Below the pieces are notes generated by a model. That model had not been told where the DNA came from. It did not search any database and saw nothing but the letters and a program-made list of their open reading frames with translations. This document shows positions 39,562 to 64,000 of a DNA stretch of 64,000 bases, piece after piece. Source of the stretch: Selaginella moellendorffii (lineage: Eukaryota > Plantae > Lycopodiophyta). The stretch covers positions 1 to 64,000 of the forward strand of contig NW_003314364.1 of NCBI RefSeq assembly GCF_000143415.4, written 5' to 3'. The position numbers and the translations under genes were made by a program. The first letter of the stretch is position 1; each line of letters begins with the position of its first letter.

Positions 39562-40489
39562 AATTGTAAGCGACTAAATTTTCCATTCTACTTTAGTCAC
39601 TTAACCACACCTCTGACCACTTGGAGGAGTCTCATTCACAACCTCCATAAGTCCAATCCAGGACTTGGGACTTGCTAGCCCCGAGAATGGCATCCATGCC
39701 ACTTAACATTTGCACTTGGTCCAAGTGCTCCACGTGTCCGATCCCATGACCGACACTCAGAGGTACCACCGACATAGCAGCCCGTTACACTAAGGCCATG
39801 CCCAATCACCTTTGCCACACTGGTAGTCCAATACCACTCGCATCACCGTCTTGGCTCTCCAAGACTAGGCAAACCATCCGTGAGTGGTCATCTCAGATCC
39901 ACTCCTTAGCATCCTTAGGATGCCCACCGACAAGGGGAATAGCCTTCCTCAATATCCCTCTGTCAGTTCCCACTATGTCCCTTTCTGCCCCTGGTCGTGT
40001 TTGCCAACACTGCCACTGGATCGAGACCCACAGGCCCGACCACTAAGTCCCACGGTCCTCTGGGACTTCCTCACCACACGACTGTGTCCTTGGTCACTAC
40101 CCCAGAGGACTGTTCCTCTTCCTTTCCACAGGCTGGGCCTTCGGGACAACATTTCAGAACACCGTGGCCTTACGCGAGCCACCTGGGTACTCTCCTCGCC
40201 TTTCGCCTTTAGGTGCTCTAGCCATGGGCTTAGAGCGAGGTTCCGTTGAGCCACACCAGGTATCCAAGTAGGTAGTGCCACCCACACTTGGACTGGGAGC
40301 ATCGGCCAGTCGATCTCCCGGGGGAACTAGAGCCGGCTCTTGAACACTTCACCAAGCTACCCCGCTTGTCGGTCTGTGTTCACTCTAGTCTTGGACTTCC
40401 CAGTGGGCAGCTCATCACCCAACACTGGGTCCGGCCTTCCTGGGCCAAACTGGCCTTTCCTGGCCAAACTGGCTCCACTGCAGTCCTCC

Positions 40490-40558
40490 CCCTACTATAC
40501 TTTTGGAGCTCACCAAACCCCCCAGGGTCTGGGAGACGAACGCTTTGGGCTTTCACCC
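40490..40558 (-). promoter_or_regulatory. Pol I core-promoter copy inside LTR A (nested copy 1)
   Basis: Same as 34735-34803; points toward the PBS. Confidence 0.8.
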
Positions 40559-43500
40559 TCTCAGGCTCCGGACTCGGACTCGGACTCGGACTCGGACTCG
40601 GACTCGGACTCGGACTCGGACTCGGACTCGGACTTGGGCTCGGGCTCGGTCTCAGCCTCGGCCTCGGTCTCGGTCTCGGTCCCGATCTCAGTCTCGGTCT
40701 CGATCTCGGTCTCGGTCCCGGTCTCGGTCTCGACTTCGGACTCCATCTCAAACTCCATCTCGGACTCCATCTCGGACTCCATCTCGGGTCCATCTCAGGT
40801 CCATCTCGGACTCCATCTCGGACTCCATCTCGGACTCCATCTCGGGTCCATCTCAGGTCCATCTCGGACTCCATCTCGGACTCCATCTCGGGTCCATCTC
40901 GGACTCCATCTCGGACTCCATTTCGGGTCCATCTCGAGTCCACCTCGGACTCCATCTCGGACTCCATCTCGGACTCCATCTCGGGTCCATCTCGGACTCC
41001 ACTTCGGACTCCAACTCGGGTCCATCTCGGGTCCATCTCGGACTCCACTTCGGACTCCACCTCGGGTCCATCTCGGACTCCACTTCGGACTCCAACTCGG
41101 GTCCATCTCGGACTCCATCTCGGACTCCATTTCGGGTCCATCTCGGGTCCACCTCGGACTCCATCTCGGACTCCATCTCGGACTCCATCTCGGACACTCC
41201 CACGTGTCATGTGTTGGTCCTTTTGGGTCCCTTTTTGGAGCCTCGCCTTTTTCTCGCTTCGTGCTCGTTCCTCGAGCACTTCGTTGGGAGTTCCACTCCC
41301 GCTCTTGACTTTTCAAGTCGGAGCTTTTGGTCCAAACGTGTTACGCTCGTTTGGCTCTCGCTTCGGCCCCTACCATGTGGCGCCCTTCCGGCTCCACTTT
41401 GGGGCCTAGGGATTTTGTGTCTCACAGAGGAGTAGCAAGTCGGGAAGACATGGCTCTCCATTACAGTTCATGTATGAACTTGTAGACGAGGTGGTGGATA
41501 GAAAAGGGCCAATAATGGAACGACTTTGGGATCTTGGGAACAGTGCAAGGTTTTCCTCATTGAGTTGAGGATGTGATCCGGATGAGCATTTGTCTCAGCA
41601 AATTGGCTAAGGTTGTTGTGGTAAACAACTAAAGTTGGGATCACGGGAAAGATAGAGACTCCAAAACAATAAAGGAGTCACAAAATTATCCTCATATAGT
41701 TGAGGTTGGTGCTCATGAATGTGAGACCAGAGGTAATGACCGTGGGAGGTCAAATACGGAAGAGGACTCAAGTCCTTGAAATGGTAGCCAGGGCTACCTT
41801 TAATAAATGCTGGAACAACCCAAGGAGTTCGGGGGTGTACGTAGTGGATGAGTTGGTATTCTCATCACATGGACAAGTAGTCCTAAGGGGCAAAGGTTGC
41901 CCCCAGAGAACAAAATCAAGTGTCGGAGTAACACTTGTGAAAATAATCCTTTTGAGTAGGACAGGAATGCAAGAAGTGTATTCCAGTGAGCTAGTGCCTC
42001 ACAAGTAGGACCCTATGAGTCTGTGGATTAACCAAGTCCAAAACTGCTGGATGACTCAAGTAGAGTCAAGGGATGGTCCTAAAAGGACTGATGGAAGCAT
42101 TTGGACTGAGGTGTGTTGTACCCCACAAAGGATGGGGGGGGGATCATAGGATCCAAGGATGAGAACAGAGGGTATCTCATCGATGGCAAAATGTGCCATG
42201 TTAAAGTCGTGGGAAAGGTGTTCCCAAAAAGAAAACAACTTTGACACAAAGTTATGTGTGACCTCTATGGTGTAGTGCTAACGGATGGTTGGCATGAGAA
42301 AGAGTGGCATTGGTCTTGGCAAAGACTTAGACACAAAGAAGAAGTGTCATAGAGGTAGGCTCGTGGAGCCGATGGTGTGGAGACACCAAATGTGCCAAGG
42401 TGTGATACCTTGAGGCTATGTTTGTGGGTTCATGAGAACCCCTTGCCAAAGGAATCCTAATGGAAATGGGAATGGCATAGCCTAAGCTGCAGAGCATGCA
42501 GTTGGAGTGCGGTGACCCAGATAATGATGGAGGTGTGAAAGCACCAAGCAATGAGTTGTAGGACTTGACAACTATGAGGCAACTAAGCAAGAGGTGCAAA
42601 ATAACTGGTTAAACGGGTAGAAGGTAGCTACCCAAGACTTCTAGCATAGGGAAGTCGGATATACCCTTGCGGGGGATAAGTTGCTTATGTTGCGATATAG
42701 TAAGTCAATGTCATAAAAGGAAATACTCATTGTCAAGAAAGCCATCATTGGGACACCTGAACACTCTAGAACACCATAAGGTGGTGTTTGATGTCGCGAG
42801 GGCAATGGATAAAGCCCAAGGGACTAAGTCCCTAGCGAATGATGGATAGAAGGTGCTGTCCAAATGTCCAAGGTTGCGGAGACAGGAGAGGACTGTCTAC
42901 CCGAATTGGACAAAGCCAAAAATGGAATTTTGGCAAGGCTAGTGATGGGCATGTAAAGGCCCATAAGCAACAATGTAATCCCAGTGTGTGGGATTATAAG
43001 GTGAGCATACCCGGATTGAGGAACCACTCCCTAGGCTATTGGGTAGGTTCATCCCTAAGAATACTTGCTAAAGCATGATAGAAAGTGCAAAGCTATCCTC
43101 CTGGTCTGGAGGAGAATGACTAAAGGAAAGGTGTGAAGCCCAAAAGCAAGAAGTAAGGGGATAGAAGCGAACCGTAGGAATCAAAGGGCATAACCAAGGT
43201 TGGTTATGCCAGCTGGGAGTGGAGAATCAAGTGGGGGCTCGAGGGTGTTGCCACTAGCAACCGTGATGCCATGGAGAGTCTAAGTTATGGAATTGTCCAT
43301 GTTAGACTATGTGGCATTTGGAAGGCTTGCAAAAGGGAGGCCTTAGCAAGCTGAGGGACAGAGTTCCTTCAAGGTTCCCAAAGACGATTCTAGGTAGCTT
43401 AGTACCTAGAAAGGCCAAGTGTAAATGGTTCATGGAACGCGCGAAATTAGAGTGGCGCAGCAAAAGCGTGGTCTTGAAGCTTGCCATGAGGCAAGGCTAT

Positions 43501-45435: not shown

Positions 45436-46454
45436 TGTGAGACACAAAATCCCTAGGCCCCAAAGTGGAGCCAGAAGGGCGCCACATGGTAGTGGCCGAA
45501 GCGAGAGCCAAACGAGCGTAACACGTTTGTGTAAGCGACTAAATTTTCCATTCTACTTTAGTCACTTAACCACACCTCTGACCACTTGGAGGAGTCTCAT
45601 TCACAACCTCCATAAGTCCAATCCAGGACTTGGGGCTTGCTAGCCCCGAGAATGGCATCCATGCCACTCAACATTTGCACTTGGTCCAAGTGCTCCACGT
45701 GTCCGATCCCATGACCGACACTCAAAGGTACCACCGACATAGCAGCCCGTTACGCTAAGGCCATGCCCAATCACCTTTGCCACACTGGTAGTCCAATACC
45801 ACTTGCATCACCGTCTTGGCTCTCCAAGACTAGGCAAACCATCCGTGAGTGGTCATCTCAGATCCACTCCTTAGCATCCTTAGGATGCCCACCGACAAGG
45901 GGAATAGCCTTCCCCAATATCCCTCTGTCAGTCCCCACTAAGTCCCTTTCTGCCCCTGGCTGTGTTTGCCAACACTGCCATTGGATCGAGACCCACAGGC
46001 TCGACCACTAAGTCCCACGGTCCTCTGGGACTTTCTCACCACACGACTGTGTCCTTGGTCACTACCCCAGAGGACTGCTCCTCTTCCTTTCCACAGTCTG
46101 GGCCTTTGGGACAACATTTCGGAACACCGTGGCCTTACGCAAGCCACCTGGGTACTCTCCTCGCCTTTCGCCTTTAGGTGCTCTAGCCATGGGCTTAGAG
46201 CGAGGTTCCGTTGAGCCACGACAGGTATCCAAGTAGGTAGTGCCACCCACACTTGGACTGGGAGCATCGGCCAGTCGATCTCCCGGGGGAACTAGAGCCG
46301 GCTCTTGAACACTTCACCAAGCTACCCCGCTTGTCGGTCCGTGTTCACTCTAGTCTTGGACTTCCCAGTGGGCAGCTCATCACCCAACACTGGGTCCGGC
46401 CTTCCTGGGCCAAACTGGCCTTTCCTGGCCAAACTGGCTCCACTGCAGTCCTCC

Positions 46455-46523
46455 CCCTACTATACTTTTGGAGCTCACCAAACCCCCCAGGGTCTGGGAG
46501 ACGAACGCTTTGGGCTTTCACCC
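46455..46523 (-). promoter_or_regulatory. Pol I core-promoter copy in the 3' LTR of nested copy 2
   Basis: Same as 34735-34803. Confidence 0.8.
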
Positions 46524-49500
46524 TCTCAGGCTCCGGACTCGGACTCGGACTCGGACTCGGACTCGGACTCGGACTCGGGCTCGGGCTCGGTCTCAGCCTC
46601 GGCCTCGGTCTCGGTCTCGGTCTCGGTCCCGATCTCGGTCTCGGTCTCGGTCTCGGTCCCGGTCTCGGTCTCGACTTCGGACTCCATCTCGGACTCCATC
46701 TCGGGTCCATCTCGGGTCCATCTCGGACTCCATCTCGGACTCCATCTCGGGTCCCTCTCGGGTCCATCTCGGACTCCACTTCGGACTCCAACTCGGGTCC
46801 ATCTCGGGTCCACCTCGGACTCCACTTCGGACTCCATCTCGGACTCCATCTCGGGTCCATCTCGGACTCCATCTCGGACTCCAATTCGGGTCCATCTCGG
46901 ACTCCACTTCGGACTCCAACTCGGGTCCATCTCGGACTCCACTTCGGACTCCAACTTGAGTCCATCTCGGACACTCCCACGTGTCATGTGTTGGTCCTTT
47001 TGGGTCCCTTTTTGGAGCCTTGCCTATTGCTCGCTTCGTACTCGTTCCTCGAGCACTTCGTTGGGAGTTCCACTCCCGCTCTTGACTTTTCAAGTCGGAG
47101 CTTTTGGTCCAAACGTGTTACGCTCGTTTGGCTCTCGCTTCGGCCACTACCATGTGGCGCCCTTCCGGCTCCACTTTGGGGCCTAGGGATTTTGTGTCTC
47201 ACAACTCCACCACCCATAGACGAAGTTCGATGTCCTCATCAAACGGTAAACCATTTTATAAAGTAACACCCGCACGTGTTACCATTTACATCCTTGGCAC
47301 CTAGCCAATATTTGTCAAGGGTTTGACATTGAAGGCTCACCATGCCTTTTGCATATTCTTTAATGGTTTGACACCAAAGGCTCACCATGCCTTGCCTATC
47401 CTCTAAGGAGGGTAGTCTCTCCAACTTAGAGACTGATTGGACCACATGTAGTGGTTCTCTCCTTTTAGTGGTTTAGTTCCCGCTAAACCTCTTAGAGACC
47501 CTTCTCTAAGTCAATCCCACTACTCCTTCTTGAGTAGTCTCGATTTCCATCGATATAACCTTTGCACTTTGGAACTTTGAATTTTGATTTCTTGGAGTCA
47601 ATTTCCTAGGTGTCTCCGACACCTTGCCTTGCACCTTTTTGTGCAACTCCACTTCCCATCCTAGGAAGTTCTCTACTCGAGGGCACCATCATCCTCTCTT
47701 CTATTTTGTGCCAAAGTTCCAGTTATCATACTTTGTGCTAGGGCTGTTCATGGCCCTATCATTTGGCTACCTTACCGCTCCCTTCTTTGGAGCTTCCACT
47801 TTCGCCAAATTGGAGCATTTCGGAATCCCTCCTTGGAAACACACTTCCTTTCCCGCAACTTGTTAGCGTCCAACACATTAGTGTTCCTCGCCTAACTTTG
47901 TCACTTGGATTCCTTCCAAGGGATTCCATGGCCCTATCTTGGCCACTCATCTTTTGCTCCTATCCGTTGATTGTTGCACCAAGCAACATCGAATCTCTAC
48001 CTCCCTCCTTGAGGTATTGTTTCGGTTCCATAGCAAAGACTCTTCTTTGCCAAGTCCGGAGGATGTTCACCCCTAGTACGTCTCTTTAGCATCTTCTGCT
48101 ATGGGCTCTATCCACGGCCCAACTTCGTGACCCTCCCATGGGTCTTTTATAGAGACTACTTTCCTCGGACTCACTATGCCATCGCACGGACATAGTTTAT
48201 TTCCCTTAGGTGCTCTTCCCACTTGGTCATCACGACCAAGTCACACCACCTTAAATAGTTCAATTTCAACATTTTGAACTAGGAACTTCATTCCTTAGCC
48301 AACCAAGGACCTTGTCCTTATCTGGCCATAAGATCACCTAGTGATCTCACCTTGGCACCTTAACAGAGCTGCCAAGAGGTACTTGGTCTTCTAGACCTCC
48401 AAGTTGTTGACTATAACCCCAGGGGCATCCCCCACACTTGGCGGTGCACCCAAGCCAGCCCTTACGGCCAAGGGTTCATAGCAACTGAGATTAGGTGTCC
48501 CCATCTCACTCACCACGACCTTGGTGCCACTTGCACCAAAGCGTTCAAGTTAGATATGCTGAGCTTTCACACTAAGCAATCTAACCGTGCATCACGACTC
48601 CGAGGCATCCCTCGCTTGGCGGTGTGCCCAAACCAGTCTCCCCACTGAGAGTCCATGACCACCGAAATATGAGTGTCCTCATATTCCAAACCATCACCAC
48701 GCCCTAGTGATTTGGGACTCGAACCCAAGCACTAGAGGGTCGGGACTCGAACCCAACCTCCGTATATGCATCTACGGACGGCATCACACAAGATGCCTGG
48801 CGTGACTCCCCACGCCGGTGCACCAACTTATTTTTAAAGCGCGCTACAGATCACAGTTTAGGAACCTAGTTCCTCCACACTGCCAAGTCCTCTCACTTGA
48901 CATGTCTGTGATCATGCATGGACTCCTCCATGCTCGGCCCCATGGCCCACCCTTTTTGAAGTTATCACCTTCAACTAGGGTATTTGTTCCCCCGACGTGC
49001 CAATCTCGCTTGGCAAGTCCTCCGACCACTGTAACATGGTTCCTGCATAAGCGTGAAAGTCCTTGACCATCGACTTTCGTTCAAAGCCCTCTCTTTGAAC
49101 ACTCGGGAACTACTTCCCTAACCTTGATAGCCTTGCCTCATGGCAAGCTTCAAGACCACGCTTCTGCTGCGCCACTCTGATTTCGCGCGTTCCATGAACC
49201 ATTTACACTTGGCCTTTCTAGGTACTAAGCTACCTAGAATCGTCTTTGGGAACTTTGAAGGAACTCTGTCCCTCAGCTTGCTAAGGCCTCCCTTTTTGCA
49301 AGCCTTCCAAATGCCACATAGTCTAACATGGACAATTCCATATTTTAGACTCTCCATGGCATCACGATTGCTAGCGGCAACACCCTCGAGCCCCCCACTT
49401 GATTCTCCACTCCCAGCTGGCATAACCAACCTTGGTTATCCCCTTTGATTCCTACAGTTCGGTTCTATCCCCTTACTTCTTGCTTTTTGGCTTTACACCT

Positions 49501-52229
49501 TTCCTTTGGTCATTCTCCTCCAGACTAGGAGGATAGCTTTGCACTTTCTATCATGCTTTAGCAAGTATTCTTAGGGATGAACCTACCCAATAGCCTAGGG
49601 AGGGGTTCCTCAATCCGGGTATGCTCACCTTATAATCCCACACACTGGGATTACATTGTTGCTTATGGGCCTTTGCATGCCCATCACTAGCCTTGCCAAA
49701 ATTCCATTTTTGGCTTTGTCCAACTCGGGTAGACAGTCCTCTTCTGTCTCCGTAACCTTGGACATTTGGATAGCACCTTCTATCCATCATTCGCTAGGGA
49801 CTTAGTCCCTTGGGCTTTATCCATTGCCCTCGCGACATCAAACACCACCTTCTGGTGTTCTAGAGTGTTTGGGTGTCCCAATGATGGCTTTTTTTTGACA
49901 ATGAGTATTTCCTTTTATGACATTGACTTACTATATCGCAACACAGGCAACTTATCCCCCGTAAGGGTGTATCCGACTTCCCTATGCTATTAAGAAGTCT
50001 TGGGTAGCTACCTTCTACCCGTTCAACCAGTTATTTTGCACCTCTTGCTTAGTTGCCTCATAGTTGTCAAGTCCTACAACTCATTGTTTGGTGCTTTCAC
50101 ACCTCCATCATTATCTGGGTCACCACACTCCAACTGCATGCTCTGCAGCTTAGGCTATGCCATTCCCATTTCCATTGGGATTCCTTTGGCAAGGGGTTCT
50201 CATGAACCCACCAACATAGCCTCAAGGTATCACACCTTGGCACATTTGGTGTCTCCACACCATCGGCTCCACGAGCCTACCTCTATGACACTTCCCCTTC
50301 GTGTTTATGTCTTTGCCAAGACCAACACCGCTCTTTCTCATGCCAACCATCCGTTAGCACTGCACCATAGAGGTCACACACAACTTTGCGTCAAAGTTGT
50401 TTTCTTTTTGGGAACACCTTTCCCACGACTTTAGCATGGCACATTTTGCCATCGATGAGATACCCTCTGTTCTCATCCTTGGATCCTATGATCCCCCCCC
50501 ATCCTTTGTGGGGTACAACACACCACAGTCCAAATGCTTCCATCAGTCCTTTTAGGACCATCCGTTGACTGTACTTGAGTCATCTAGCAGTTTTGGACTT
50601 GGTTAATCCACAGACCCGTAAGGTCCTACTTGTGAGGCACTAGCTCACTGGAATACACTTCTTGCATTCCTGTCCTACTCAAAAGGACTATTTTCACAAG
50701 TGTTACTCCGACACTTGATTTTGTTCTCTGGGGGCAACTTTTGCCCCTTAGGACTACTTGTCCATGCGATGAGAATACCACTCATCTCTAAGTACACCCC
50801 CCAACTCCTTGGGTTGTTCTAGCATTTATTAAAGGTAGCCCCGACTACCATTTCAAGGACTTGAGTCCTCTTCCGCATTTGACCTCCCACGGTCATTACT
50901 TCTGGTCTCACATTCATGAGCACCAACCTCAACTATATGAGGATAATCTTGTGACTCCTTTATTGCTTTGGAGTCTTTATCTTTCCCGTGATCCCAACTG
51001 TAGTTGTTTACCACAACTACATTAGCCAGTTTGCTAAGTCAAACGCTCCTCTGGATCACATCCTCAACTCTCTGAGGAAAACCATATACTGTTCCCAAGA
51101 TCCCAAAGTCGTTCCATTATTGGCCCTTTTCTATCCACCACCTCGTCTACAAGTTCATACATGAACTGTAATGGAGAGCCATGTCTTCCCGACTTGCTAC
51201 TCCTCAAGGATAGGCCCACTCCTCGGACCTTTCGATGCCAACACTAGTGGTGATATACTTGAGCACCAATAAAAGTCGGACTAAGGAACAGCTCCGATAC
51301 CAAATTGTAAGCGACTAAATTTTCCATTCTACTTTAGTCACTTAACCACACCTCTGACCACTTGGAGGAGTCTCATTCACAACCTCCATAAGTCCAATCC
51401 AGGACTTGGGGCTTGCTAGCCCCGAGAATGGCATCCATGCCACTCAACATTTGCACTTGGTCCAAGTGCTCCACGTGTCCGATCCCATGACCGACACTCA
51501 AAGGTACCACCGACATAGCAGCCCGTTACGCTAAGGCCATGCCCAATCACCTTTGCCACACTGGTAGTCCAATACCACTTGCATCACCGTCTTGGCTCTC
51601 CAAGACTAGGCAAACCATCCGTGAGTGGTCATCTCAGATCCACTCCTTAGCATCCTTAGGATGCCCACCGACAAGGGGAATAGCCTTCCCCAATATCCCT
51701 CTGTCAGTCCCCACTAAGTCCCTTTCTGCCCCTGGCTGTGTTTGCCAACACTGCCATTGGATCGAGACCCACAGGCTCGACCACTAAGTCCCACGGTCCT
51801 CTGGGACTTCCTCACCACACGACTGTGTCCTTGGTCACTACCCCAGAGGACTGCTCCTCTTCCTTTCCACAGTCTGGGCCTTTGGGACAACATTTCGGAA
51901 CACCGTGGCCTTACGCGAGCCACCTGGGTACTCTCCTCGCCTTCTGCCCTTGGGTGCTCTAGCCATGGGCTTAGAGCGGGTTCCGTTGAGCCACACCAGG
52001 TATCCAAGTAGGTAGTGCCACCCACACTTGGACTGGGAGCATCGGCCAGTCGATCTCCCGGGGGAACTAGAGCCGGCTCTTGAACACTTCACCAAGCTAC
52101 CCCACTTGTCGGTCCGTGTTCACTCTAGTCTTGGACTTCCCAGTGGGCAGCTCATCACCCAACACTGGGTCCGGCCTTCCTGGGCCAAACTGGCCTTTCC
52201 TGGCCAAACTGGCTCCACTACAGTCCTCC

Positions 52230-52298
52230 CCCTACTATACTTTTGGAGCTCACCAAACCCCCCAGGGTCTGGGAGACGAACGCTTTGGGCTTTCACCC
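52230..52298 (-). promoter_or_regulatory. Pol I core-promoter copy in the 5' LTR of nested copy 2
   Basis: Same as 34735-34803. Confidence 0.8.
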
Positions 52299-52424
52299 TC
52301 TCAGGCTCCGGACTCGGACTCGGACTCGGACTCGGACTCGGACTCGGATTCGGACTTGGACTCGGGCTCGGGCTCGGTCTCGGCCTCGGTCTCGGTCTCG
52401 GCCGATTGTCCCGATCTCGGTCTC

Positions 52425-52457
<33 letters not shown>

Positions 52458-52977
52458 CCGGTCTCGGTCTCGACTTCGGACTCCATCTCGGACTCCATCT
52501 TGGACTCCATCTCGGACTCCATCTTGGACTCCATCTCGGACTCCATCTCGGGTCCATCTCGGGTCCATCTCGGACTCCATCTCGGACTCCATCTCGGGTC
52601 CCTCTCGGGTCCATCTCGGACTCCACTTCGGACTCCAACTCGGGTCCATCTCGGGTCCACCTCGGACTCCACTTCGGACTCCATCTCGGACTCCATTTCG
52701 GGTCCATCTCGGACTCCACTTCGGACTCCAATTCGGGTCCATCTCGGACTCCACTTCGGACTCCAACTCGGGTCCATCTCGGACTCCACTTCGGACTCCA
52801 ACTTGAGTCCATCTCGGACACTCCCACGTGTCATGTGTTGGTCCTTTTGGGTCCCTTTTTGGAGCCTTGCCTATTGCTCGCTTCGTACTCGTTCCTCGAG
52901 CACTTCGTTGGGAGTTCCACTCCCGCTCTTGACTTTTCAAGTCGGAGCTTTTGGTCCAAACGTGTTACGCTCGTTTG

Positions 52978-53077: not shown

Positions 53078-53642
53078 TCCGAGATGGACCCGAGTTGGAG
53101 TCCGAAGTGGAGTCCGAGATGGACCCGAGTTGGAGTCCGAAGTGGAGTCCGAGATAGACCCGAGATGGAGTCCGAAGAAGGAGTCCGAAGATGGAGTCCG
53201 AGATGGAGTCCGAGATGGAGTCCGAAGTTGGAGTCCGAGGTGGACCTGAGATGGACCCGAGATGGAGTCCGAGATGGAGCCCGAGATGGAGTCCGAGATG
53301 GAGTCCGAGGTGGACCCGAGATGGACCTGAAATGGAGTCCGAGATGGAGTCCGAGATGGACCCGAGATGGAGTCCGAGATGGAGTCCGAGATGGACCCGA
53401 GATGGACCCGAGATGGAGTCCGAGATGGAGTCCGAGATGGAGTCCGAGATGGAGTCCGCAGTCGAGACCGAGACCGAGACCGGGACCGAGACCAAGACCG
53501 AGACCGAGACCGAGATCGGGACCGAGACCGAGACCGAGGCCGAGGCTGAGACCGAGCCCGAGCCCGAGTCCGAGTCCGAATCCGAGTCCGAGTCCGAGTC
53601 CGAGTCCGAGTCCGAGTCCGAGTCCGAGTCCGGAGCCTGAGA

Positions 53643-53711
53643 GGGTGAAAGCCCAAAGCGTTCGTCTCCCAGACCCTGGGGGGTTTGGTGAGCTCCAAAA
53701 GTATAGTAGGG
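53643..53711 (+). promoter_or_regulatory. Pol I core-promoter copy in the outer copy's 3' LTR
   Basis: Same as 34735-34803. Confidence 0.8.
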
Positions 53712-54928
53712 GGAGGACTGCAGTGGAGCCAGTTTGGCCAGGAAAGGCCAGTTTGGCCCAGGAAGGCCGGACCCAGTGTTGGGTGATGAGCTGCCCACTG
53801 GGAAGTCCAAGACTAGAGTGAACACAGACCGACAAGCGGGGTAGCTTGGTGAAGTGTTCAAGAGCCGGCTCTAGTTCCCCCGGGAGATCGACTGGCCGAT
53901 GCTCCCAGTCCAAGTGTGGGTGGCACTACCTACTTGGATACCAGGCGTGGCTCAACGGAACCTCGCTCTAAGCCCATGGCTAGAGCACCCAAGGGCAGAA
54001 GGCGAGGAGAGTACCCAAGTGGCTCGCGTAAGGCCACGGTGTTCCGAAATGTTGTCCCAAAGGCCCAGACTGTGGAAAGGAAGAGGAGCAGTCCTCTGGG
54101 GTAGTGACCAAGGACACAGTCGTGTGGTGAGGAAGTCCCAGAGGACCGTGGGACTTAGTGGTCGGGCCTGTGGGTCTCGATCCAGTGGCAGTGTTGGCGA
54201 ACACGGCCAGGGGCAGAAAGGGACTTAGTGGGGACTGACAGAGGGATATTGGGGAAGGCTATTCCCCTTGTCGGTGGGCATCCTAAGGATGCTAAGGAGT
54301 GGATCTGAGATGACCACTCACGGATGGTTTGCCTAGTCTTGGAGAGCCAAGACGGTGATGCAAGTGGTATTGGACTACCAGTGTGGCAAAGGTGATTGGG
54401 CATGGCCTTAGCGTAACGGGCTGCTATGTCGGTGGTACCTTTGAGTGTCGGTCATGGGATCGGACACGTGGAGCACTTGGACCAAGTGCAAATGTTGAGT
54501 GGCATGGATGCCATTCTCGGGGCTAGCAAGTCCCAAGTCCTGGATTGGACTTATGGAGTTTGTGCCCGTCACAAGCACATGTGTTGCACCACAGCAATAG
54601 GTGTGCAGCCCTCTACCAAAGGCACACACCACCCCACATCAGGAGGATTAACTGCCAGCCAGCCCACCACCACCGCATGCAAAGATCCGAGTCTCCCGGC
54701 TTTCACCAGGACCCGTCCCAATGCGCATTGTGGTGGCGAGCAGGGAGTGTGATGTTGCAGGTAGCAAAAGCAGAGCCACGAGCCAAAGCCAGAAGCCAAA
54801 GCCCACTTTGAGCTCGCCCCGCACGCAGTATACCACGTGAAGAGCACTCGCTCGCCCGGATTCGGACCCGGACTCGGACTCCGAGTTCAACTCGGACTCC
54901 ACCTCGGCTACCCGACCTCCAACACCCA

Positions 54929-55005: not shown

Positions 55006-56860
55006 CAGCATGTATTAGTGTTCGGGCTTAGAATCTGGAAGTGCTGCGACTTCTGCAACATCAACAATGAAAAAGTGGTCATTTTTTCTTACTTTTTTTT
55101 TCCGAGTGTCACGAGACGACTCCTAGGAGCGGATGACACGTGGCACACTGTTCATGCCATGTAACATGTGCCGTTTTTAGTGGTTTTTCAACGTAAGAGT
55201 CACGTGACATATTTCGAGCTTGGTGTCATGGTAGTAAATGTAGTGTTGCCAACTCATATTTCGGCTAAAGTTGGATGTTTTTGAGTTGTTTTTTTTCGTA
55301 GTAACTTATATCGCCACGTGTTATTCCACGTGCTCTAAAGATGGCACACTGGCTCAATGTATGGAACGCAACACTATGCCATGTGCAAGCGTAGGGTTTA
55401 GGGTTTAGGGTAGGGTAGGGTTTGCCACGTGGCATACATTTTGAGCAATTTATATGCCATGAGCTATACCTTTTAGAAGGTGGCATTCAGACGGATGGTT
55501 TGGATGAGGTGGCATGCCACGTGGCATACTTTTATGTACTTATAGCATGCCACGTGCCAAACCCTTGGAGAGGTGGCATCTTGGAGGTTGCATGCCACGT
55601 GGTAAACCCTTGGAGAGGTGGTACCTATGGATGCCACATGGCAAACCCTTGGAAAGATGGCATCTTCGAGGTTGCATGCCACGTGACAAACCCTTGGAGA
55701 GGTGGTACCTATGGATGCCACGTGGCAAACCCTTGGAAAGGTGCATCTTGGAGGTTGCATGCCACGTGGCAAACCCTTGGAAAGGTGCATCTTGGAGGTT
55801 GCATGCCACGTGATAAACCCTTGGAGAGGTGGTACTTATGGATGCCACGTGGCAAACCCTTGGAAAGGTGGCATCTTGGAGGTTGCATGCCACGTGACAT
55901 AACATTGGAAAATACCTCTTTTGCACTTGTATGCCACGTGGCATACCTTAGGCCCCGGACATGTCCGGGCCCAGATATGTGGGTCCCCAGACATGTCGGG
56001 CCCCAGATATATCCGGGCCCCGGACATGTCGGGCACCCGTTATGTCGGGCCCCGGACATGTCGGGCACCCAGAGATATCGGGCCCCGGACATGTCGGGCC
56101 CTGGATATATCCGGGCCCGGACATGTCTGGCCCCGGACATGTCGGGCACCCGATATGTCGGGCCCCGGACATGTCGGGCCCCGGATATATCCGGGCCCGG
56201 ACATGTCCGGCCCCGGACATGTCGGGCACCCGGACATGTCAGGCCCCGGATATATCCGGGCCCGGACATGTCTGGCCCCGGACATGTCGGGCACCCGATA
56301 TGTCGGGCCCCCGACATGTCCAGCCCTGGATGTGTCTAGCCCTGGATATATCCGAGTTTTATTTTGACACGTGGCATGGTCTTTGGTTTGATCTCATAGA
56401 GTTTTATGGTTTTCAATGTGTGCCACATTGACACGTGGCATGCCCTTTGGTTTGTTCTCATAGAGTTTTATGGTTTTCAATGTGTGCCACATTGACACGT
56501 GGCATGTGCTTTGGTTTGTTCTGAGTTTTATGGTTTTCAATGTGTCACATTGACACGTGGCATGCCCTTTGGCTTGTTCTCATAGTTAGAGTTTAGTGTC
56601 CTTGACCTTGTATGCCACGTGACACACATATGTTTGGACTTGCTTGCCATGCCACGTGGTGACAATCACCAACACATTATTTCTAACTTATATCCTAGTT
56701 AATAACTAGCTAACGACACAATTTGGCAAATACACCTTACATTCACAATTGTAAGTAGTATTTAAAGACCATACACTTATATGCTATGGAAAAATACTCA
56801 AAGTTTATATATTAAAACAGTGATCTTACAAAAATAAATGACTTGTAAGGAAAAAAAAAA

Positions 56861-56978
56861 GAGGGGGTCACTTGGACTTCCCGGGTGGTCACCCAGCCCA
56901 GTACTATTCAAGCCCAGGGACGCTTAACTTTGGAGGTCTGATGGGATCCAGTGCCATAGTCACAGTTTGAACCCACTC
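56861..56978 (-). rRNA. 5S: 5S rRNA gene in IGS, copy 3
   Basis: As copy 1 except one C>T at 56964; T10 terminator at 56851-56860. Confidence 0.9.
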
Positions 56979-57227
56979 TGAAATATTTCACACTCCCCCT
57001 ACTCTTATAGTGTGGGGCAGCTGATCCAAAGCTGCAGTGTACCTCCACAATCCAGTGTTCTTTTTGGGTGCCAAAAAACCTGCGGGACGTGTGGTACCTC
57101 CCCAACAATTCACGAAGACCGTGTTTTGGGCCCCAAAATGCACGCTGCGAAATGCGGGGTACCTCCCCAACTTTTCGTGAAAATCACGCGTTTTGGGCCC
57201 AAAAAAGCCCGCGGAACACATGGTACC

Positions 57228-58143
57228 TGTAGCGCACCTGAATTTGGAGCCGAACTCCAAGCCCGTTGCGCTACGAAACGAGGGTCCGGTGCAATCCCAT
57301 GAGCACCAGCTCCCCGTATCCAGCACCTGCACGCAAAATGGTGTCAGACGGAGTCTGGCACAATTTTGGCATACCGGTGGCCTAACGCAAGGAGGAGGGT
57401 ACTCCACTGACTAGAGCGGCGTGGAGCTTGGGCTTAGACCCAAGCCGGACGCAGAACAAGGAGCGACACAGCCCAGCGGGAGCCAAACTAATGTCTCAGG
57501 TGGTCGGACATGCATTCCAACCACTATCCCTACTATACATTTGGAACCCCCCACAGCCCCCCCCCCTTGAGGGACACACGCTTTGGGCTTTCACCCCAAG
57601 CCTCCCTTAGTACCAGGAGTTAGTCTCTGGGACAAGTCCGAAACTTACTAAATATGGAATGTCCTTAGATTGCGAATTTGGACACAGGACGAACACCATT
57701 GTGTTCAGGCCGATCTCTACACTCCGTAGATATGCCAAATGAGCTAATCTAGACACTTTCCATAAATAGTATTTGGGACCAAAATGAGACCAACACAAAG
57801 GGCGTGATAGCGAGAGTGTTTGGCAGACACGGTAAGCTATCATCCAGCGATATTGAGGGACTAGTCTCAATATGCGAGGGTTCTTGCCAAGCCAGTGCAA
57901 GACAGAGCAAAAGAGAACTAAGAGCCAGGCCGAGAATGCTCAGCTAGAAACACATAGGAGTTCCTACCTTATGTCCATCTGGCTAAGTACAGATGCTAAG
58001 CCCAGTAAACTAACACTTGGACAAGAGGGGCCAATAAAGGGAACCAGCAGTACCGACCTCCTGCCGTCATGGCAGTAAGGAGAGAGTGTCCGTAAGGACC
58101 GGTCGACAAGTATCTTTCGATACCTGAAGTCACATTCGCGACA
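57228..58143 (-). repeat. 3' LTR of element B (916 bp)
   Basis: TG…CA ends with imperfect inverted termini; bounded by the PPT and the IGS junction. Confidence 0.93.
57522..57598 (-). promoter_or_regulatory. Pol I core-promoter copy inside LTR B
   Basis: 73/77 identity to 8177-8253, TATAGTAGGG intact; flanks unrelated to the IGS. Confidence 0.85.
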
Positions 58144-58156
58144 CTCTCCCCCCCTT
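58144..58156 (-). other. Polypurine tract of element B (AAGGGGGGGAGAG)
   Basis: Directly precedes the 3' LTR TG on the minus strand. Confidence 0.9.
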
Positions 58157-58750
58157 GGGGAAGATCGACGTCCTCGTCGATGCATACCCGAGTCTAGCAA
58201 ACCGTCAAGGAAACAACTCCGAAAGTTAACGGAAAGCACACTATGTGGGAAACACACCGACTTAAATGAGTTATGGAACTACCTCTCCTCTACGTCCAAA
58301 GACGTTAAGACTCAGACACCCTCCGGCCGTCACCGACAAGGAAATGACTAGCAAATTTAGCCACCCTTGCTGCTCCGAGGACCACTCGGCTTACAAAGGA
58401 ATGATACATCCCTGCCTGCAGGGACATAGGGAGAAGGCCAGAGGCCCAACTTCCCCTGAGCAAGAAATCAACCCCGTCGGGAAGATTTAGATAACTACTA
58501 TAAACTGGCAGATTAAGTTGTTTACACGACCACGCCCCTTTTCGAAAATGAGTCATCGAGAGAGAGGCGGGGACTTGTGATCAGTCTATAATAGTTATCC
58601 CCATGGTTATGGATTGAACCCATGCACCGAAGTGCCGAAGTCAGGCTGCCAAAACTGACCCAAGTACTAATGAACGAGAGAAACGACACTTTGATTATAG
58701 AAATATAGTATTTTATTAATTTGCAAGATTTATTACAAGATTTACAAAAG

Positions 58751-61700
58751 CTAGTTTTTATTACGTTTCTCATACTCCGTGACAAGCTCACGAGCATGTG
58801 TAAGATTCCTAAGAGGTTCCCAAGTTGATTCACAAGTCGGGTAACCTTTCCACTTAACGAGATATTCCTTCGCATGAGCCCGTCTTCGAAATCGAGAATC
58901 TAAGATAGATTCAGCTTCATACTCTGGTTCACCATCCACGATTACTGGCGGAGGACGCAAATCCGTAGAGCGTTCGACAGCAGCATGATATGGTGCCAGT
59001 AAACTGACATGAAACACATCATGTAGCTGAGATAACTCATCCGGAAGATCCAACTTATAGGATACATCACCAATGCGTTTCAACACCCGATAAGGTCCAA
59101 CATATCGCGGTAACAGCTTCCGAGACAAAGATCCCTTAATGTTCAAGTTTCGGGAAGATAGCCACACCCGATCTCCCACTTGATAGGATACATCCCGACG
59201 ATGCTGATCCTTATCACGTCGATACCTATTTTGAGCTTTGCCCATCGCCTCAGTTGCTCTAGACCAACCTTGATGTAGCTGCTCCGCATAAGTCTCAACG
59301 GCTGGAACCAACACTTCGGACATTGGTTTCGGTACAACAATCTGTTGAGGAACCCCACGAGCATTTCCTTGCAGCATCTCCCATGGAGAACAGCCGATAG
59401 CGCTGTGAAATGTGTTGTTATAACATATTTCTGCTGTATCCAAATGCTCAACCCAGTCGCGTTGGTCCGCCGCGACATAGTACCGTAGATAATCCTCAAC
59501 TTGAGCATTCACACGTTCGGTTTGCCCATCAGTTTGAGGATGATAAGCCGTACTAAACTTCAACTTGGTACCAAACAACTGGAACAGTGTGCCCCAAAAC
59601 TTCCCCGTAAACCTTGAATCTCTATCTGAGATCATCTCTTCAGGAAGACCACGAACTCGCACTACTTCATGGAAAAAGAGCTTTGCTGCTTGTTTCGCAT
59701 TCACTGTTCCCACAGTTGGAATGAAGTGTGCAATCTTCGACAACCGATCCACAACCACCATCAAAGTATCATAACCTTTAGACTTCGGCAAACAAGTGAC
59801 GAAATCAAGTGTCACACTTTGAAATGGCCATGCCAGTGCTGGAATGCACTGCAACTTTCCAGCCTGCTTCTCAGCTTTGCGCTTACATTGCTGGCATATA
59901 GGGCAGGAACGGACATAGTCCGCTACATCACCTTCCATACCAGACCAGAAAAATCCCTTTTTCAACGAAGCTAGAGTCTTTCGCTGTCCACCATGTCCCG
60001 CTGCCGGAACATCATGATGTTCCCGCAGAAATAACTGCTGAAGATCCTTAGAGGGAAGATACAATCTTTCTTGCTTATAGAATATAAGCCCATCCCGAAC
60101 TGAGAAGTGAAGTTTCGCATTAGTGCGACTAGCAACTTTTGCTGCCTCGCTACCAGGGCTCTGCTTCAACAACCCCGCACGGCATAAGATTGCCTTCGCC
60201 AATGGATCACTTCCATATGAAGCCCGAACGTCTTCCAACCAGTCCGAACTGATTGCCGATATTGCCCGGAATTGAGCTTGACGACTCAACGCATCCGGAA
60301 CAATATTGTCTTTACCAGGTTTATATATGATTTCAATATCATATCTAGCAAGCTTCTCTTGCCAACGAGCCTGCTTCGGCGTAAGCTTAGGCTGCGTAGC
60401 AAAGTAGCTTAGTGTGTTACTATCTGTATAAACCTTGGTGTGTCCACCCAAGTAGTGTCTCCAGTGTTCCAAGGCCGACACTATAGCAAACATTTCTTTC
60501 TCATGCGTTGGCCATCTTCGTTGGGTTTCATCCAATTTCTTGGAATAGAACGCAACGGGACAACCATGTCGCCTTAGCGTAACACCAACCGCTTTGTCAC
60601 AATCTTGCTGTAACACGGCACCAATAGCATATCCAGACGCATCACAATGCACCTCGAAGGGTTTATCAAGATCTGGGATCCTGAGAACAGGAACCGTAGT
60701 CAAGATCTCCTTCAATCGTACAAAAGCACGCTGGCAAGCTGGTGTCCAATGAAACGGAATACTACTCTTCGTCAACTCAGTCAACGGAAGAGCAATTCTT
60801 GCAAAATTGCGGACAAACTTGCGATAGTATCCCGCCAAACCGAGAAAGGAACGAACATCTGATACAGTGGTCAGAATTTCCCAGGACTTCACCGCTTCCA
60901 CTTTCTTTGGATCGACTTCAATCACGCCACCACTAACTATATGTCCGAGAAAGTTTACGCGCAATTGACCAAAAGCGCATTTGCTTTCCTTAGCATATAG
61001 TTTGTGTTCGCGCAACTTCTGAAACACCAGCTCCAAGTGTTTCAAATGATCCTCCAACGTCTCGCTGAAGACTAGAACATCGTCAATATATAGGACAACA
61101 AATGCGTCCAAATAATCTCCGAATATTCTATCCATCATAGTGCTGAACGTTGCTGGAGCATTGCATAACCCGAATGGCATGACAAGGAACTCGTAAGATC
61201 CGTACCGAGTCTTAAAGGCTGTCTTCTCCACATCCTGATCCGCCACCCGTATCTGATGATACCCGGACCGCAAATCAAGTCGCGTAAAATACTTAGCCTT
61301 TAAGAGTTGGTCAAACAAGTCATCAATGCGAGGCAAAGGATAACTGTTCTTGACCGTGATCTTATTGAGTGCCCGATAGTCAATACACATCCTCATGGTT
61401 CCATCCTTTTTCATAACAAAAAGGATTGGTGCTCCATAAGGTGACTTGCTGGGTCGGATATGACCTTTGTCAAGAAGCTCTGTGAGTTGCTTCTTGAGTT
61501 CAGCCATTTCCTTGATGTTCAACCGATATGGAGCTTTCGTAGGCGGTTTAGAACCCGGAATAACCTCAATCCGATGATCAACCTCACGGCTAGGGGGTAG
61601 CCCTGGTGGAGAATCCTTCGGGAAGATATCCTGATTCTGCGCCAACAACTCCAATATCTTCTTTGGTACAGGATCAACCCCGTCGCCAATTCGAACAGAG

Positions 61701-63484
61701 TCACCCACACTTTCCGCTTCCATCACTTGAACCCAAAAGGTCCGACATCCCCTCTTATTTGCTTTTTGAGCGGCCCTCGCAGTCAGGAACTTTCCATCCC
61801 AATCCTTTGAGGAACACTTTTGCAACTGGAAGGACACATCGGGTTGTCCTTCGGACTTCAATGTAATACGACTTTGTCCAGCACCATAAATCCCTTTTAT
61901 ATACTTGTTGAAGAAATCCATACCAAACACCATCTGAAAATCTGGTATCTTCAACACTACCAAGTCCACTCTTTCTTTCCACTTGGATATCTTTATTGGA
62001 ACATCACTCACAAACTTTCTGGCTACTTGCCCACCTTCCGCAAACCGGAAGTGCATAGGCGACATTTGCTCAGCATTTAATCCTAACAACTTAACTAAGT
62101 CTTCGGATATCACGCTGTGCGTAGCTCCCGTGTCAATCATCACTCGGATTCGGTGTCCACGGACAAAGCCTACCAGATACATCAACGGATCAGTGTTTGC
62201 ATTGACTGCAAGAAAAGCTTGAGGAAAGCAACGAAAGTTACTCACCTCTTCTTCCTCATAGTCTGCATTGACCAACTCGTCAACTCCTTCAGCTTCACCA
62301 CCACCGTCTTCCCTCATGACATTAACCCGAGACCTTGTCTTATGCTTGTTGGGACAATCCGAAGACCTATGTCCCGACTCTCCACAATGGAAGCAATGAC
62401 CCACACTACCCGTTCCGCTAGGAGCAGGTTTTGCAAGTTGCTGCTGCTTGTACCCACCAGGAGGAGGAACAGAGGGCCTAGGACCAGAAGAAGCTGCTGG
62501 TGGTCTCCAACCACCACCACCTTTGTTAACCGTTGCTTGTGAGCCTCCAGGGCAGAACCTACTTTCCACCCTCTGTTTCCGATCACCTTGTTTATTCCCA
62601 GAATTCCTATTCTTGTCCGAGTTACCAGCATACGGTTGCTGATATTGTTCTATGAGTGAGTGACTAAAGGCAACTTGCTGTGCTGCCTCCTTACACTCCA
62701 GATACGTCTTTGGCTTAAACTTCAAAATCTCATTGCGAGAAAGTGAACTTAAACCCTCCAGAAAATAACTTCGAGCATCTTCGTCACTCATATTTGCAAT
62801 CATAATGCGCTTCTGAGCAAACGCATTAACGTAATGCATGAGATCACCTCGCTGCTTTAACCGCCGCAGCTCCGCGCGAAGTCTCAGACCAAGATCATCC
62901 GGCAAGTATTCCTTACGGATACGAGACCGCATCTTGGTCCAACTTCTAGTCTGCCCTTTTTCAACACACACTTGGCGCCACCAAGTTTTGGCATGATCGG
63001 TGAGAAAGGATTGCGCGCACGCAACTTTCGTACGATCATCTACGTCTGCCGCTATGAAGTAGTTCTCCATATCGTAGACCCAGTCTTCCAAAACCTGATA
63101 GTCCCGCATGCCTCTGAAGTTGGGTGGTTTTGGGGGCTTGAACTTTGAAACTCGTGCAACCGGGGGCGGCTGCAGAACTTCATCATCCTCAGAACTCGAA
63201 GAGGAGTCCGGTTGCTTAGGCTTAGCTGGTTTAGCTGCCTCAGCCTCTTTCTTCCTCTTCTTGTTCTCCTTCTTCAATTTGCGAATCTCCTTTCGCAAAT
63301 TCTCGATCTCGACTTCCTGAGCCGTTCGCTGCAGCGCCGCAGCAACCGGCTCTTCCTCTTCTGACTCAGCCTCAGCCTCTTCCGCAGCATCTCTATTAGG
63401 AGTTTCCTCCTCTCGATTCGCCCGTCTAGAGGTTTCAGCGTCATCAGCACGGTTCCGTTTCACCATCCCGCTAGCTGCATGCAT
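58751..63484 (-). CDS. gag-pol: Gag-Pol polyprotein (gag, CCHC knuckle, aspartic protease, RT, RNase H, integrase, chromodomain), ~1577 aa from the first ATG
   Basis: AKTWW gag; [14 protein letters not shown]; IDTGATHS; YIDD; [12 protein letters not shown]; HHDVPAAGH…CPIC; DFV/SDRDSRF/ERVN; GPY; YEAESILD…YLVKWKGY…TWEP; gypsy domain order; start at ATG 63484 or 63466. Confidence 0.96.
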
Positions 63485-63644
63485 GTCTCTATCAGTAACT
63501 GAACATGCATACAACGTTCTTACCGAATGGTGTAATCCAACTAATCCTACACAGGTCGCTTTGGATCTACTAGAAAAGTCTCTGCGTATGCAACTTGAGT
63601 CAGAAAATCCGACAAAAGTTGGATAGGAATCGCTGAGACAATCC

Positions 63645-63655
63645 CTCTGATACCA
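63645..63655 (-). promoter_or_regulatory. Primer-binding site, initiator tRNA-Met (TGGTATCAGAG)
   Basis: 2 bp from the 5' LTR end. Confidence 0.92.
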
Positions 63656-63657
63656 AA

Positions 63658-64000
63658 TGTAGCGCACCTGAATTTGGAGCCGAACTCCAAGCCCGTTGCG
63701 CTACGAAACGAGGGTCCGGTGCAATCCCATGAGCACCAGCTCCCCGTATCCAGCACCTGCACGCAAAATGGTGTCAGACGGAGTCTGGCACAATTTTGGC
63801 ATACCGGTGGCCTAACGCAAGGAGGAGGGTACTCCATTGACTAGAGCGGCATGGAGCTTGGGCTTAGACCCAAGCCGGACGCAGAACAAGGAGCGACACA
63901 GCCCAGCGGGAGCCAAACTAATGTCTCAGGTGGTCGGACATGCATTCCAACCACTATCCCTACTATACATTTGGAACCCCCCACAGCCCCCCCCCCTTGA
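63658..64000 (-). repeat. 5' LTR of element B (partial), containing the Pol I TIS motif at 63958-63967
   Basis: Direct repeat of 57228-57570. Confidence 0.93.

Follow-up and report, generated by a model that had tools for sequence, protein, structure and literature searches.

RNA polymerase I normally makes only ribosomal RNA; LTR elements use Pol II, and Cassandra-like TRIMs use Pol III. In a 64,000-nucleotide stretch of Selaginella moellendorffii DNA (here the window), an LTR retrotransposon, element B, carries in its LTR a copy of the host rRNA gene promoter. This raises the question of whether a retroelement could be transcribed by Pol I from a promoter of its own.

Element B lies on the minus strand. 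Its 3' LTR (57228..58143, minus strand) spans 916 bp with TG..CA ends, and the stretch ends inside the 5' LTR, leaving its 3' part (63658..64000, minus strand) identical to the 3' LTR at 341 of 343 positions, the two mismatches being at 57407 and 57421. A single gag-pol ORF (58751..63484, minus strand; 1577 aa) runs without internal stops through gag, a zinc knuckle, PR, RT, RH, integrase parts and a group I chromodomain. With so few LTR mismatches and an uninterrupted ORF, the element is young and intact, as an earlier note on this DNA had claimed. The primer binding site (63640..63655, minus strand) contains the 11-nt TGGTATCAGAG, which we take to be of the initiator tRNA-Met type, and the polypurine tract (58144..58156, minus strand) consists of 13 purines. 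The length of B calculates to 7346, assuming that the 5' LTR, which is partly in the window, also has 916 bp.

In its measurements, this intact chromovirus agrees with SM2-Galahad. In the published description (Novikov et al. 2012, PMC3350952), SM2-Galahad has an ORF of 4731 nt/1577 aa, exactly equal to that of B, an LTR of 919 bp and a total of 7353 (916 bp and a calculated 7346 in B), an 11-bp Met PBS and a 13-bp PPT as in B, and the same domain order, CCHC-PR-RT-RH-INT-CHD_I. B is likened to SM2-Galahad by these published measurements, the family criterion being also >80% nucleotide identity to the exemplar. The Galadriel-clade label for the family comes from the same paper (PMC3350952), and B shows the Galadriel features given in PMC6317226, with a C-terminal chromodomain and a tRNA-Met PBS and not self-priming as in Tcn1. 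In an RT-RH tree of 33 rows, of which 32 were hand-picked from 168 proteins (P0118 was dropped for short cover) and none bears a clade name, B falls into a group (99/96) with six chromodomain elements, and 13 angiosperm rows lie outside it. The sole match to B gag at E<=1e-10 was a gene model of S. moellendorffii, at 63%. The main text of the SM2-Galahad paper (PMC3350952) contains no promoter, ribosomal, rRNA or nucleol- terms; it describes SM1-Galahad LTRs with poly-G tracts of 11-25 bp, perhaps corresponding to the G11 run of the promoter block.

The host rRNA gene promoter of unit 1 lies at 8177..8253 (minus strand), followed by a 5' ETS of 1999 nt. Copies identical to it are present at 20947-21023, 33059-33135 and 54929-55005 (all minus strand), the last within the truncated rDNA spacer fragment (54565-57227) that hosts B. 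The start-site motif lies some 2 kb before the 18S gene and is a core of the TATA..(+1)A-GGG type, TATAGTAGGG, which has one additional G relative to the published plant Pol I consensus, given as TATATA(A/G)GGG (PMC7928365) and as TATATTAGGGG (PMC5560572). Read evidence came from two of three raw-read RNA runs (X22, X23) and 2 of 20 DNA runs. In the two RNA runs, the bin that contains the core has a pre-rRNA-sense depth of 0.35/0.17, down from 14.1/8.5, and depth is zero over the next 1.4 kb upstream; about 123 and 60 RNA read-bases fall in 54904-55254 and none in 55255-56658. The pre-rRNA 5' edge is bracketed to ~54904-55026, within ~100 nt of the core and not base-resolved, this edge and the depth over the block being known at a resolution of 351-nt bins. 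The drop of the pre-rRNA-sense reads in the bin of the core, and their absence upstream, identify the block with the promoter region of the host rRNA genes, whose transcription may start at this motif. The span of the block in B also matches the size of working plant core promoters, -55/-33..+6 being enough in Arabidopsis and -77 constructs being active in Nicotiana, according to the promoter data excerpted from PMC7928365.

The promoter has a second part. The window has 17 copies of an 18-nt box against 0.02 expected; four of these belong to gene promoters, seven to spacer repeats and six to LTRs, with none elsewhere in the window. The spacer repeats, ~240 bp each, follow the 26S gene (11740..12830, also 24548-24806, minus strand) and are spacer-promoter-like, with the box 64 nt before a degenerate core in 6 of 7. 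Comparison of the spacer, B, A and the spacer repeats points to a two-box lycophyte Pol I promoter, in which the 18-nt upstream box stands 65 nt before +1 and is joined by the core.

The copy of this promoter in B covers -67..+10 and is found in the 3' LTR at 57522..57598 (minus strand; putative +1 at 57531) and, cut by the window end, in the 5' LTR at 63952..64000 (minus strand; putative +1 at 63961). Within the window, the 3' LTR block matches all four spacer copies at 73 of 77 positions, ungapped, with E 7.5e-29 and mismatches at 57539, 57567, 57570 and 57572, and the partial block is identical to the spacer at 46 of 48 positions (63952-63999). The match scores 122 bits, whereas 200 shuffled LTRs (2-mer shuffle) peak at 31.9 bits against the spacer. 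Its edges are sharp, identity directly upstream being 3/14. Outside the block and its echoes in the spacer repeats, the B LTR matches the spacer at no E value below 0.22. The block is sense-oriented, with the putative +1 at 304 nt before the LTR 3' end. On re-measurement, the earlier description thus stood in its extent, in its restriction to -67..+10 of the IGS, and in its sense placement ~300 nt before the PBS. Furthermore, a one-off local conversion does not account for the block, because both B LTRs share its deviations, five family A LTRs carry it, and a sister LTR, seen in 11 contigs of run X1, has the block in common with B and diverges from +11 on. By eye, this sister LTR has a 7-bp hairpin where B has one at +8..+32.

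Family A is a separate, non-coding LTR family of ~7.5 kb. A full LTR of 1861 bp (39566..41426, minus strand) holds the block at 40490-40558, with +1 at 40493 and 12-bp repeats upstream. A near-complete element (45531..52977, minus strand) consists of a 3' LTR (45531-47203, block at 46455-46523, minus strand), a non-coding internal part (47204-51306) and a 5' LTR that runs from 51307 into an N gap (minus strand, block at 52230-52298). A truncated LTR (33885..35652, block at 34735-34803) and an LTR piece past the N gap (53078..54564, block at 53643-53711) lie on the plus strand. Family A gave no tblastn match to the B polyprotein, no Pfam match in any of six sense frames read through stops, and no blastx match of its internal parts to 168 proteins. 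The earlier note had ascribed to A the same promoter in the same position; the block is indeed in all five LTR copies of the window (57/69 to the spacer, ungapped) and in the same sense orientation, but in the 1861-bp LTR a distance of 928 nt, not ~300 nt, separates its +1 from the LTR 3' end.

The block in A retains the upstream 18-nt box and the core at a 65-nt spacing exactly as in the host promoter, and the core (-16..+4) is kept at 19 of 20 positions in both families. Among the mismatches at -66..+3, 9 of 13 fall within one 20-nt stretch between the boxes (P 0.018, from a post hoc scan). This divergence, with end boxes and spacing kept and the middle drifted, resembles selection on two boxes as far as sequence can tell. 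The absence of variable columns in the A block, against 32/853 downstream, was not significant (P 0.07). We give about an even chance that the block serves as the U3 promoter from which Pol I makes the genomic RNA of A and B when silencing lapses.

Families A and B are nearly silent in the two RNA-seq runs. Just past the putative +1 of B, the bins 57361-57711 and 63679-64000 have zero RNA depth in both runs, and 16 of 19 (X22) and 18 of 19 (X23) B bins are without RNA; the R-U5 bins of A reach 0-0.5, compared with a depth of 14.1/8.5 in the ETS. In X23, nine reads match B over its PBS and LTR end alone and then differ, too short a match to assign. The lack of RNA from +1 in these runs would suit a passenger, that is, spacer DNA caught by chance in rDNA-sited progenitors and amplified along, with Pol II transcription from ordinary U3 signals. 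The U3 of B does hold a TATA-like motif, TATTTAT, which precedes +1 by 237 nt. From the 1861-bp A LTR, TATA[AT]A, TATTTAT and AATAAA motifs are all absent. The B block diverges 5% from the spacer, not less than family copies diverge from one another (7-11 differences per 110-170 nt in the family contigs among the rows listed), so that capture may be recent; nor does this figure speak for the tracking of the host promoter that the earlier note proposed. A review speculates that most rDNA modules in TEs bring no benefit (PMC10946416). Against chance, two unrelated LTRs hold the same ~70 bp of a 6.9-kb spacer, in sense and with a nearly equal upstream edge, and A retains both boxes and their spacing although the middle has drifted. 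We regard a mere passenger as unlikely.

Translation poses a further problem for a Pol I transcript of B. The predicted leader from +1 (63485..63961, minus strand; 477 nt) has a folding z of -4.9, a hairpin at +8..+32 and 8 upstream AUGs. No Pol I terminator, ribozyme or IRES was found in B (Rfam at E<=1 gave one chance match), and +1 is no folding boundary in 100-nt windows, z being -0.8 for +1..+100 in B and A. The block might instead be a Pol II promoter whose TATA-like core directs starts ~30 nt downstream and so yields capped, translatable RNA. The core, TATAGTA, departs from the TATA-box consensus at position 5 and would by that consensus be a poor TATA box. Uncapped Pol I RNA is poorly translated, and Pol II is able to transcribe from rRNA promoters of plants, inefficiently and with an altered start, as stated in the text excerpted from PMC7928365 (citing Doelling and Pikaard 1996); with Pol II, the cap problem for B Gag-Pol disappears. 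Yet the box at -66..-49 and its fixed spacing are not needed by a TATA box alone, and 6 of the 8 upstream AUGs lie past +32, so cap-scanning would still be hindered. A Pol II promoter is therefore distinctly unlikely in our judgement.

Conserved boxes combined with no RNA in two runs could also mean that the block binds Pol I factors for nucleolar tethering, as a silencing shield or as an enhancer, the transposing RNA not coming from Pol I. For the spacer-derived repeats of Pokey, an enhancer, terminator or binding-site role was suggested (PMC3849761, in part), and Galadriel-clade elements accumulate at rDNA according to the relevant part of PMC10946416. A role of this kind seems improbable, since the start-site core itself is kept in both families, oriented and placed in the LTR so as to yield genomic RNA.

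The setting of B was said in the earlier note to be rDNA-resident. B lies 249 bp upstream of a linked 5S rRNA gene (56860..56978, minus strand), in the same orientation as the rDNA, inserted after GGTACC in a spacer subrepeat; 5S-linked rDNA fits a seed-free plant. The spacer beside B is transcribed on the rRNA-sense strand, with RNA depth of 57.7/41.1 in 57010-57360. B could accordingly be read through by Pol I as R1/R2 are, its block kept alike by conversion with neighbouring units, an exchange shown by Pokey (PMC3849761, as excerpted). However, summed DNA depth of the A and B LTR bins is above that of the rDNA spacer bins in both DNA runs (a rough measure, not a true copy number), which suggests that the LTRs are more numerous than rDNA units. 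Of the three homologous sites that the window has upstream of 5S genes, the two others besides that of B are empty, and among the loose-end RNA reads listed at 57228, 10 + 10 run on into uninserted spacer. The host unit of B is a truncated fragment, with an N gap and a 20-kb cluster of A next to it. On scaffold_24, the SM2-Galahad copy that was published has a different TSD, CCTAT, and family copies run to hundreds (PMC3350952, from the portion available). The claim of rDNA residence is consequently not supported, and read-through of a resident B is very improbable. By the specificity known from R1/R2 and Pokey, namely insertion mainly at the rDNA target, A and B are not rDNA-specific, as judged from rough depth ratios and empty sites.

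In the literature searched, no Pol I core promoter inside an LTR was found. Cassandra, Ajax and Helenus carry a host rRNA- or tRNA-gene promoter in the LTR, as A and B carry one, and Cassandra mirrors host promoter changes; theirs is an internal Pol III promoter in small, non-autonomous elements, whereas A and B have the Pol I promoter that lies upstream of the 35S gene, B being autonomous at 7.3 kb and A non-coding but large at ~7.5 kb (PMC10946416, PMC10886601 and PMC10853983, each in part). Rfam found no 5S or tRNA in B, the block being 35S spacer. Two divergent lineages of Pokey in Daphnia keep the same sequence from the rDNA spacer ahead of the coding region, with a proposed role in transcription; unlike B and A, Pokey is a DNA transposon targeting the 28S gene, and in the portion of PMC3849761 seen its 200-bp repeats are not identified as a core promoter, the start site being stated as unknown. 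Monkey, Beon1 and TRRT are of the Galadriel clade, to which B belongs by its Galahad assignment, and have copies in rDNA; they sit in the 18S gene or at the NOR, B in spacer upstream of 5S, and the retrieved portions of PMC10946416, PMC3605345 and PMC2679016 report no promoter capture for them, the word promoter being absent from PMC2679016 and used once, in a generic sense, in PMC3605345. For the non-LTR elements R1/R2, reliance on Pol I was proposed, but they are thought promoterless and confined to 28S genes, whereas A and B carry a promoter and appear dispersed (PMC10946416, in part).

A wider search covered 45 metagenome loci with related pol (318 kb). The block gave one weak 21-nt match (E 0.016, L014), and 24 TATA+G-run matches in the 318 kb included none in the LTR segments of 7 loci aligned by eye. 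These loci have no bearing on promoter tracking. A recurrent TATA+G-run repeat (five sites aligned, in L018, L019, L039, L040 and L045) belongs to another dispersed repeat, which shows that the core motif cannot by itself be diagnostic. The 18-nt box is also present in two viral contigs, which have nothing further in common and were set aside as chance.

The preferred reading has the following course of events. The block, which is spacer sequence around the pre-rRNA 5' edge, would have been taken from rDNA through recombination or template switching in a progenitor and spread by retrotransposition. Transcription by Pol I would begin at +1 of the 5' LTR (63961), run past the block of the 3' LTR and finish in R. 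By LTR biology, a promoter upstream of its own start would be heritable because U3 is recopied at the element's 3' end. Since A encodes nothing, an RNA template would suffice for it, as for Cassandra with Pol III. B needs Gag-Pol, which would be made either through the structured leader, by translation independent of a cap, or off a second transcript produced by Pol II. Both families would be dispersed and mostly silenced, as rough depth also indicates, the rDNA edge being one home among many. Taken as a whole, the autonomous Galahad chromovirus B and the non-coding, very abundant LTR family A would be the first LTR system of this kind, both having captured the rRNA core promoter into U3 and being transcribed by Pol I outside the rDNA array, with B Gag-Pol made without a cap; this full picture is plausible, at slightly less than an even chance.

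If true, Pol I, with its core promoter in U3, would join Pol II and Pol III to complete the polymerase set for LTR elements, and it would be able to make the protein-coding RNA of a plant retroelement. Nearest among known cases are the capture of Pol III promoters by Cassandra, Ajax and Helenus and that of spacer sequence by Pokey. Pol I start on dispersed promoter copies, translation and ending of uncapped RNA, and the gathering of Galadriel-clade elements at nucleolar organisers are now testable. Speculatively, even without transcription, dispersed copies outnumbering rDNA units could titrate Pol I factors, and they could also feed small RNAs against the rRNA promoter.

Three 35S rDNA units (Rfam) lie on the minus strand of the window, with a 5S gene within the spacer. 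Beyond them follow a rearranged 20.7-kb cluster of family A, a non-coding LTR family (33885-54564, interrupted by 100 Ns at 52978-53077), a piece of truncated spacer at 54565-57227 and the chromovirus B. The A cluster contains inverted and nested copies and joins the equivalent of spacer position 9003 to that of position 7813 in the external transcribed spacer (ETS) without a clean TSD. Two stranded RNA-seq runs (X22 and X23) were mapped to 53500-64000 with 9.2 million records each, ~12% of each run. On the pre-rRNA strand, the ETS bin 54553-54903 reached depths of 14.1 and 8.5, bin 54904-55254 had 0.35 and 0.17, and bins 55255-56658 were at zero; ~123 and ~60 read-bases lay beyond 54904. The 5' edge of the pre-rRNA is bracketed, at bin rather than base level, to within ~100 nt around the predicted Pol I start (+1) at 54938, which is consistent with a host start at the motif, a point on which the earlier note had said its reading could fail. 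A few TTTAGGG units of telomeric type occur in the spacer (8645-8670 and 33522-33550), ~470 bp ahead of the promoter core.

The 77-bp block in the LTR of B (57522-57598) was confirmed as a copy of the rRNA gene promoter region: it aligns at 73/77, ungapped, with each of four copies in the spacer (122 bits, E 7.5e-29), against a best score of 31.9 bits in 200 shuffles. It spans -67 to +10 about TATAGTAGGG, 2.0 kb upstream of 18S, and directly upstream of it identity to the spacer is only 3/14. Plant start-site motifs are TATATA(A/G)GGG or TATATTAGGGG, and in Arabidopsis -55/-33 to +6 is enough for the rRNA promoter (PMC7928365, PMC5560572). Because the deviations of the 3' LTR from the spacer recur in as much of the 5' LTR as the window contains, the block was already in B's progenitor. 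A sister LTR has it too, since 11 contigs of the DNA run X1 match the block and diverge from B from +11 on; by eye, a hairpin is retained there at the place of B's +8 to +32 hairpin. The promoter block is a real, family-wide feature.

B was described as intact and young, and its structure bears this out: a stop-free minus-strand ORF (58751-63484; 4731 nt, 1577 aa) encodes gag, CCHC, PR, RT, RH, parts of integrase and a chromodomain, and the two minus-strand LTRs (3' LTR 57228-58143, 916 bp, TG..CA; 5' LTR from 63658 to beyond the window end) differ at 2 sites over the 343 nt in common. The ORF, the LTR, the 11-nt initiator-Met type PBS and the PPT of 13 purines agree with SM2-Galahad of S. moellendorffii; PMC3350952 gives that element 7353 bp, an LTR of 919 bp, an ORF of 4731 bp/1577 aa, an 11-bp Met PBS, a 13-bp PPT, a group I chromodomain and "hundreds of copies", and groups it with Galadriel. 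As these measurements agree and an S. moellendorffii model is, out of 7995 candidates, the sole protein that B gag matches at E<=1e-10, B very likely belongs to this known family. B joined six unnamed chromodomain elements (support 99/96) in a 33-row RT-RH tree that carried no clade labels, and 13 angiosperm rows stood apart. The main text of PMC3350952 mentions neither promoters nor rDNA; the poly-G tracts it notes for the LTR of the sister SM1-Galahad may correspond to the block's G11 run.

The earlier note had also given the unrelated family A the same promoter in the same position; the promoter held, but the position did not, the distance between +1 and the 3' end of the LTR being 928 nt in A and 304 nt in B. 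In each of the window's five A LTR copies the block lies in LTR sense, 57/69 identical to the spacer without gaps, with a core of 19/20 at -16 to +4. The 18-nt upstream box and this core retain the 65-nt spacing found in the spacer and in B. Nine of the 13 mismatches at -66 to +3 are clustered within 20 nt (post hoc P 0.018), and lower variation in A's block (0 variable columns vs 32/853 downstream, five copies) was not significant (P 0.07). Away from the block, the LTRs of A and B show no relationship (next match E 0.06), and no coding capacity was detectable in A. Against an expectation of 0.02, the window has 17 copies of the 18-nt box, distributed over 4 gene promoters, 7 spacer repeats and 6 LTRs. 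The ~240-bp spacer repeats (11740-12830, 24548-24806) are candidate spacer promoters; in the six measured, a degenerate core follows the box at 64 nt. A's U3 has 12-bp GTCCGA-type repeats resembling those of the ETS and spacer.

The proposed rDNA residence of the elements is unlikely. Summed contig depth in the DNA run X4, which is inflated by overlapping contigs and is not a copy number, was 166-388 in spacer and ETS bins, 874 in B's U3 bin, 33-175 in B internal bins and 2251-4479 in A LTR bins, and X1 gave the same order; the excess of A is several-fold despite that inflation. B's homologous site is empty in both other 5S-upstream regions of the window and also in the listed RNA loose ends at 57228 (10 and 10 reads), and the published SM2-Galahad copy has a different TSD. 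A and B look dispersed, this B copy lying in a broken unit at the edge of the rDNA array; that the elements reside in rDNA and are transcribed by read-through is highly improbable.

Pol I use by the LTRs is plausible, and the block has an even chance of serving as a U3 promoter for Pol I. U3 is copied from the RNA 3' end in the LTR life cycle, so an LTR element can hand on a promoter upstream of its own start, and a SINE or LINE cannot. For A, template RNA alone would suffice; B would require protein besides. Its predicted leader (477 nt, structured, z -4.9, 8 upstream AUGs) would fit cap-independent translation, while a second, Pol II transcript could arise from a TATA-like motif that precedes +1 by 237 nt. 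Neither terminator nor ribozyme was found in B. Pol II might instead use the block itself, since plant rRNA promoters are usable by Pol II (PMC7928365), though this is rather improbable.

RNA reads, required to be 92% alike and drawn from runs of unspecified tissue and RNA selection in which ETS depth is itself low, left 16/19 (X22) and 18/19 (X23) of B bins empty, both bins directly downstream of +1 included, and A's R-U5 bins had depths of 0-0.5. Because LTR promoters outnumber rDNA promoters yet their RNA bins are near-empty, a single LTR copy must be far less active than an rDNA copy in these samples. Such near-silence argues against constitutive Pol I use and is compatible with germ-line or stress use. 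That the block is a passenger is unlikely, and that it binds factors without initiation is quite doubtful. Nine X23 reads match B over no more than the PBS and the end of the LTR (63643-63660) and then run into another leader; they may come from some other Met-primed element, transcribed across its PBS.

Upstream of the linked 5S (56659-57360, equivalent to 10000-10700), rRNA-sense RNA depth is 41-58, above the 5' ETS, from 26S read-through or spacer-promoter transcripts. TATAAGAGTAGGGGG, a TATA element resembling the Pol I start-site motif, lies on the minus strand (10335-10350, 57004-57020) and precedes the 5S gene by ~30-45 nt. The internal spacer ITS1 of unit 1 (4057-4377), which recurs in units 2 and 3, includes a 55-nt segment that matches the central portion of the linked 5S gene, where the Pol III boxes lie, at 51/55. 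The segment was confirmed by RNA reads and an X4 contig (loose ends 56872/56926).

A 2024 review (PMC10946416) gives 5S promoters, a 28S fragment and Pokey spacer repeats as rDNA pieces in TEs in its Table 2 and section 11, which lack the Pol I core promoter. Pokey is the closest case of spacer capture, retained by two lineages (PMC3849761). "Polymerase I" and "Pol I" occur nowhere in the available text of PMC10886601, and that of PMC8724763 and PMC6562748 adds nothing further. Open full-text literature, covered mostly by title and abstract start, yielded no Pol I promoter in an LTR, in line with the earlier note, which knew of no such description for plant chromoviruses. At 45 metagenome loci with related pol, the aligned LTRs showed no core like this one, although the promoters of their hosts may differ from it; a dispersed metagenome repeat has a conserved TATA and G-run motif (L018:12244, L019:10126, L039:3304, L040:266, L045:723). 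The element family itself is very likely a known one and the Pol I promoter block in its LTR apparently unreported, a new variation on rRNA-promoter capture by LTR elements.
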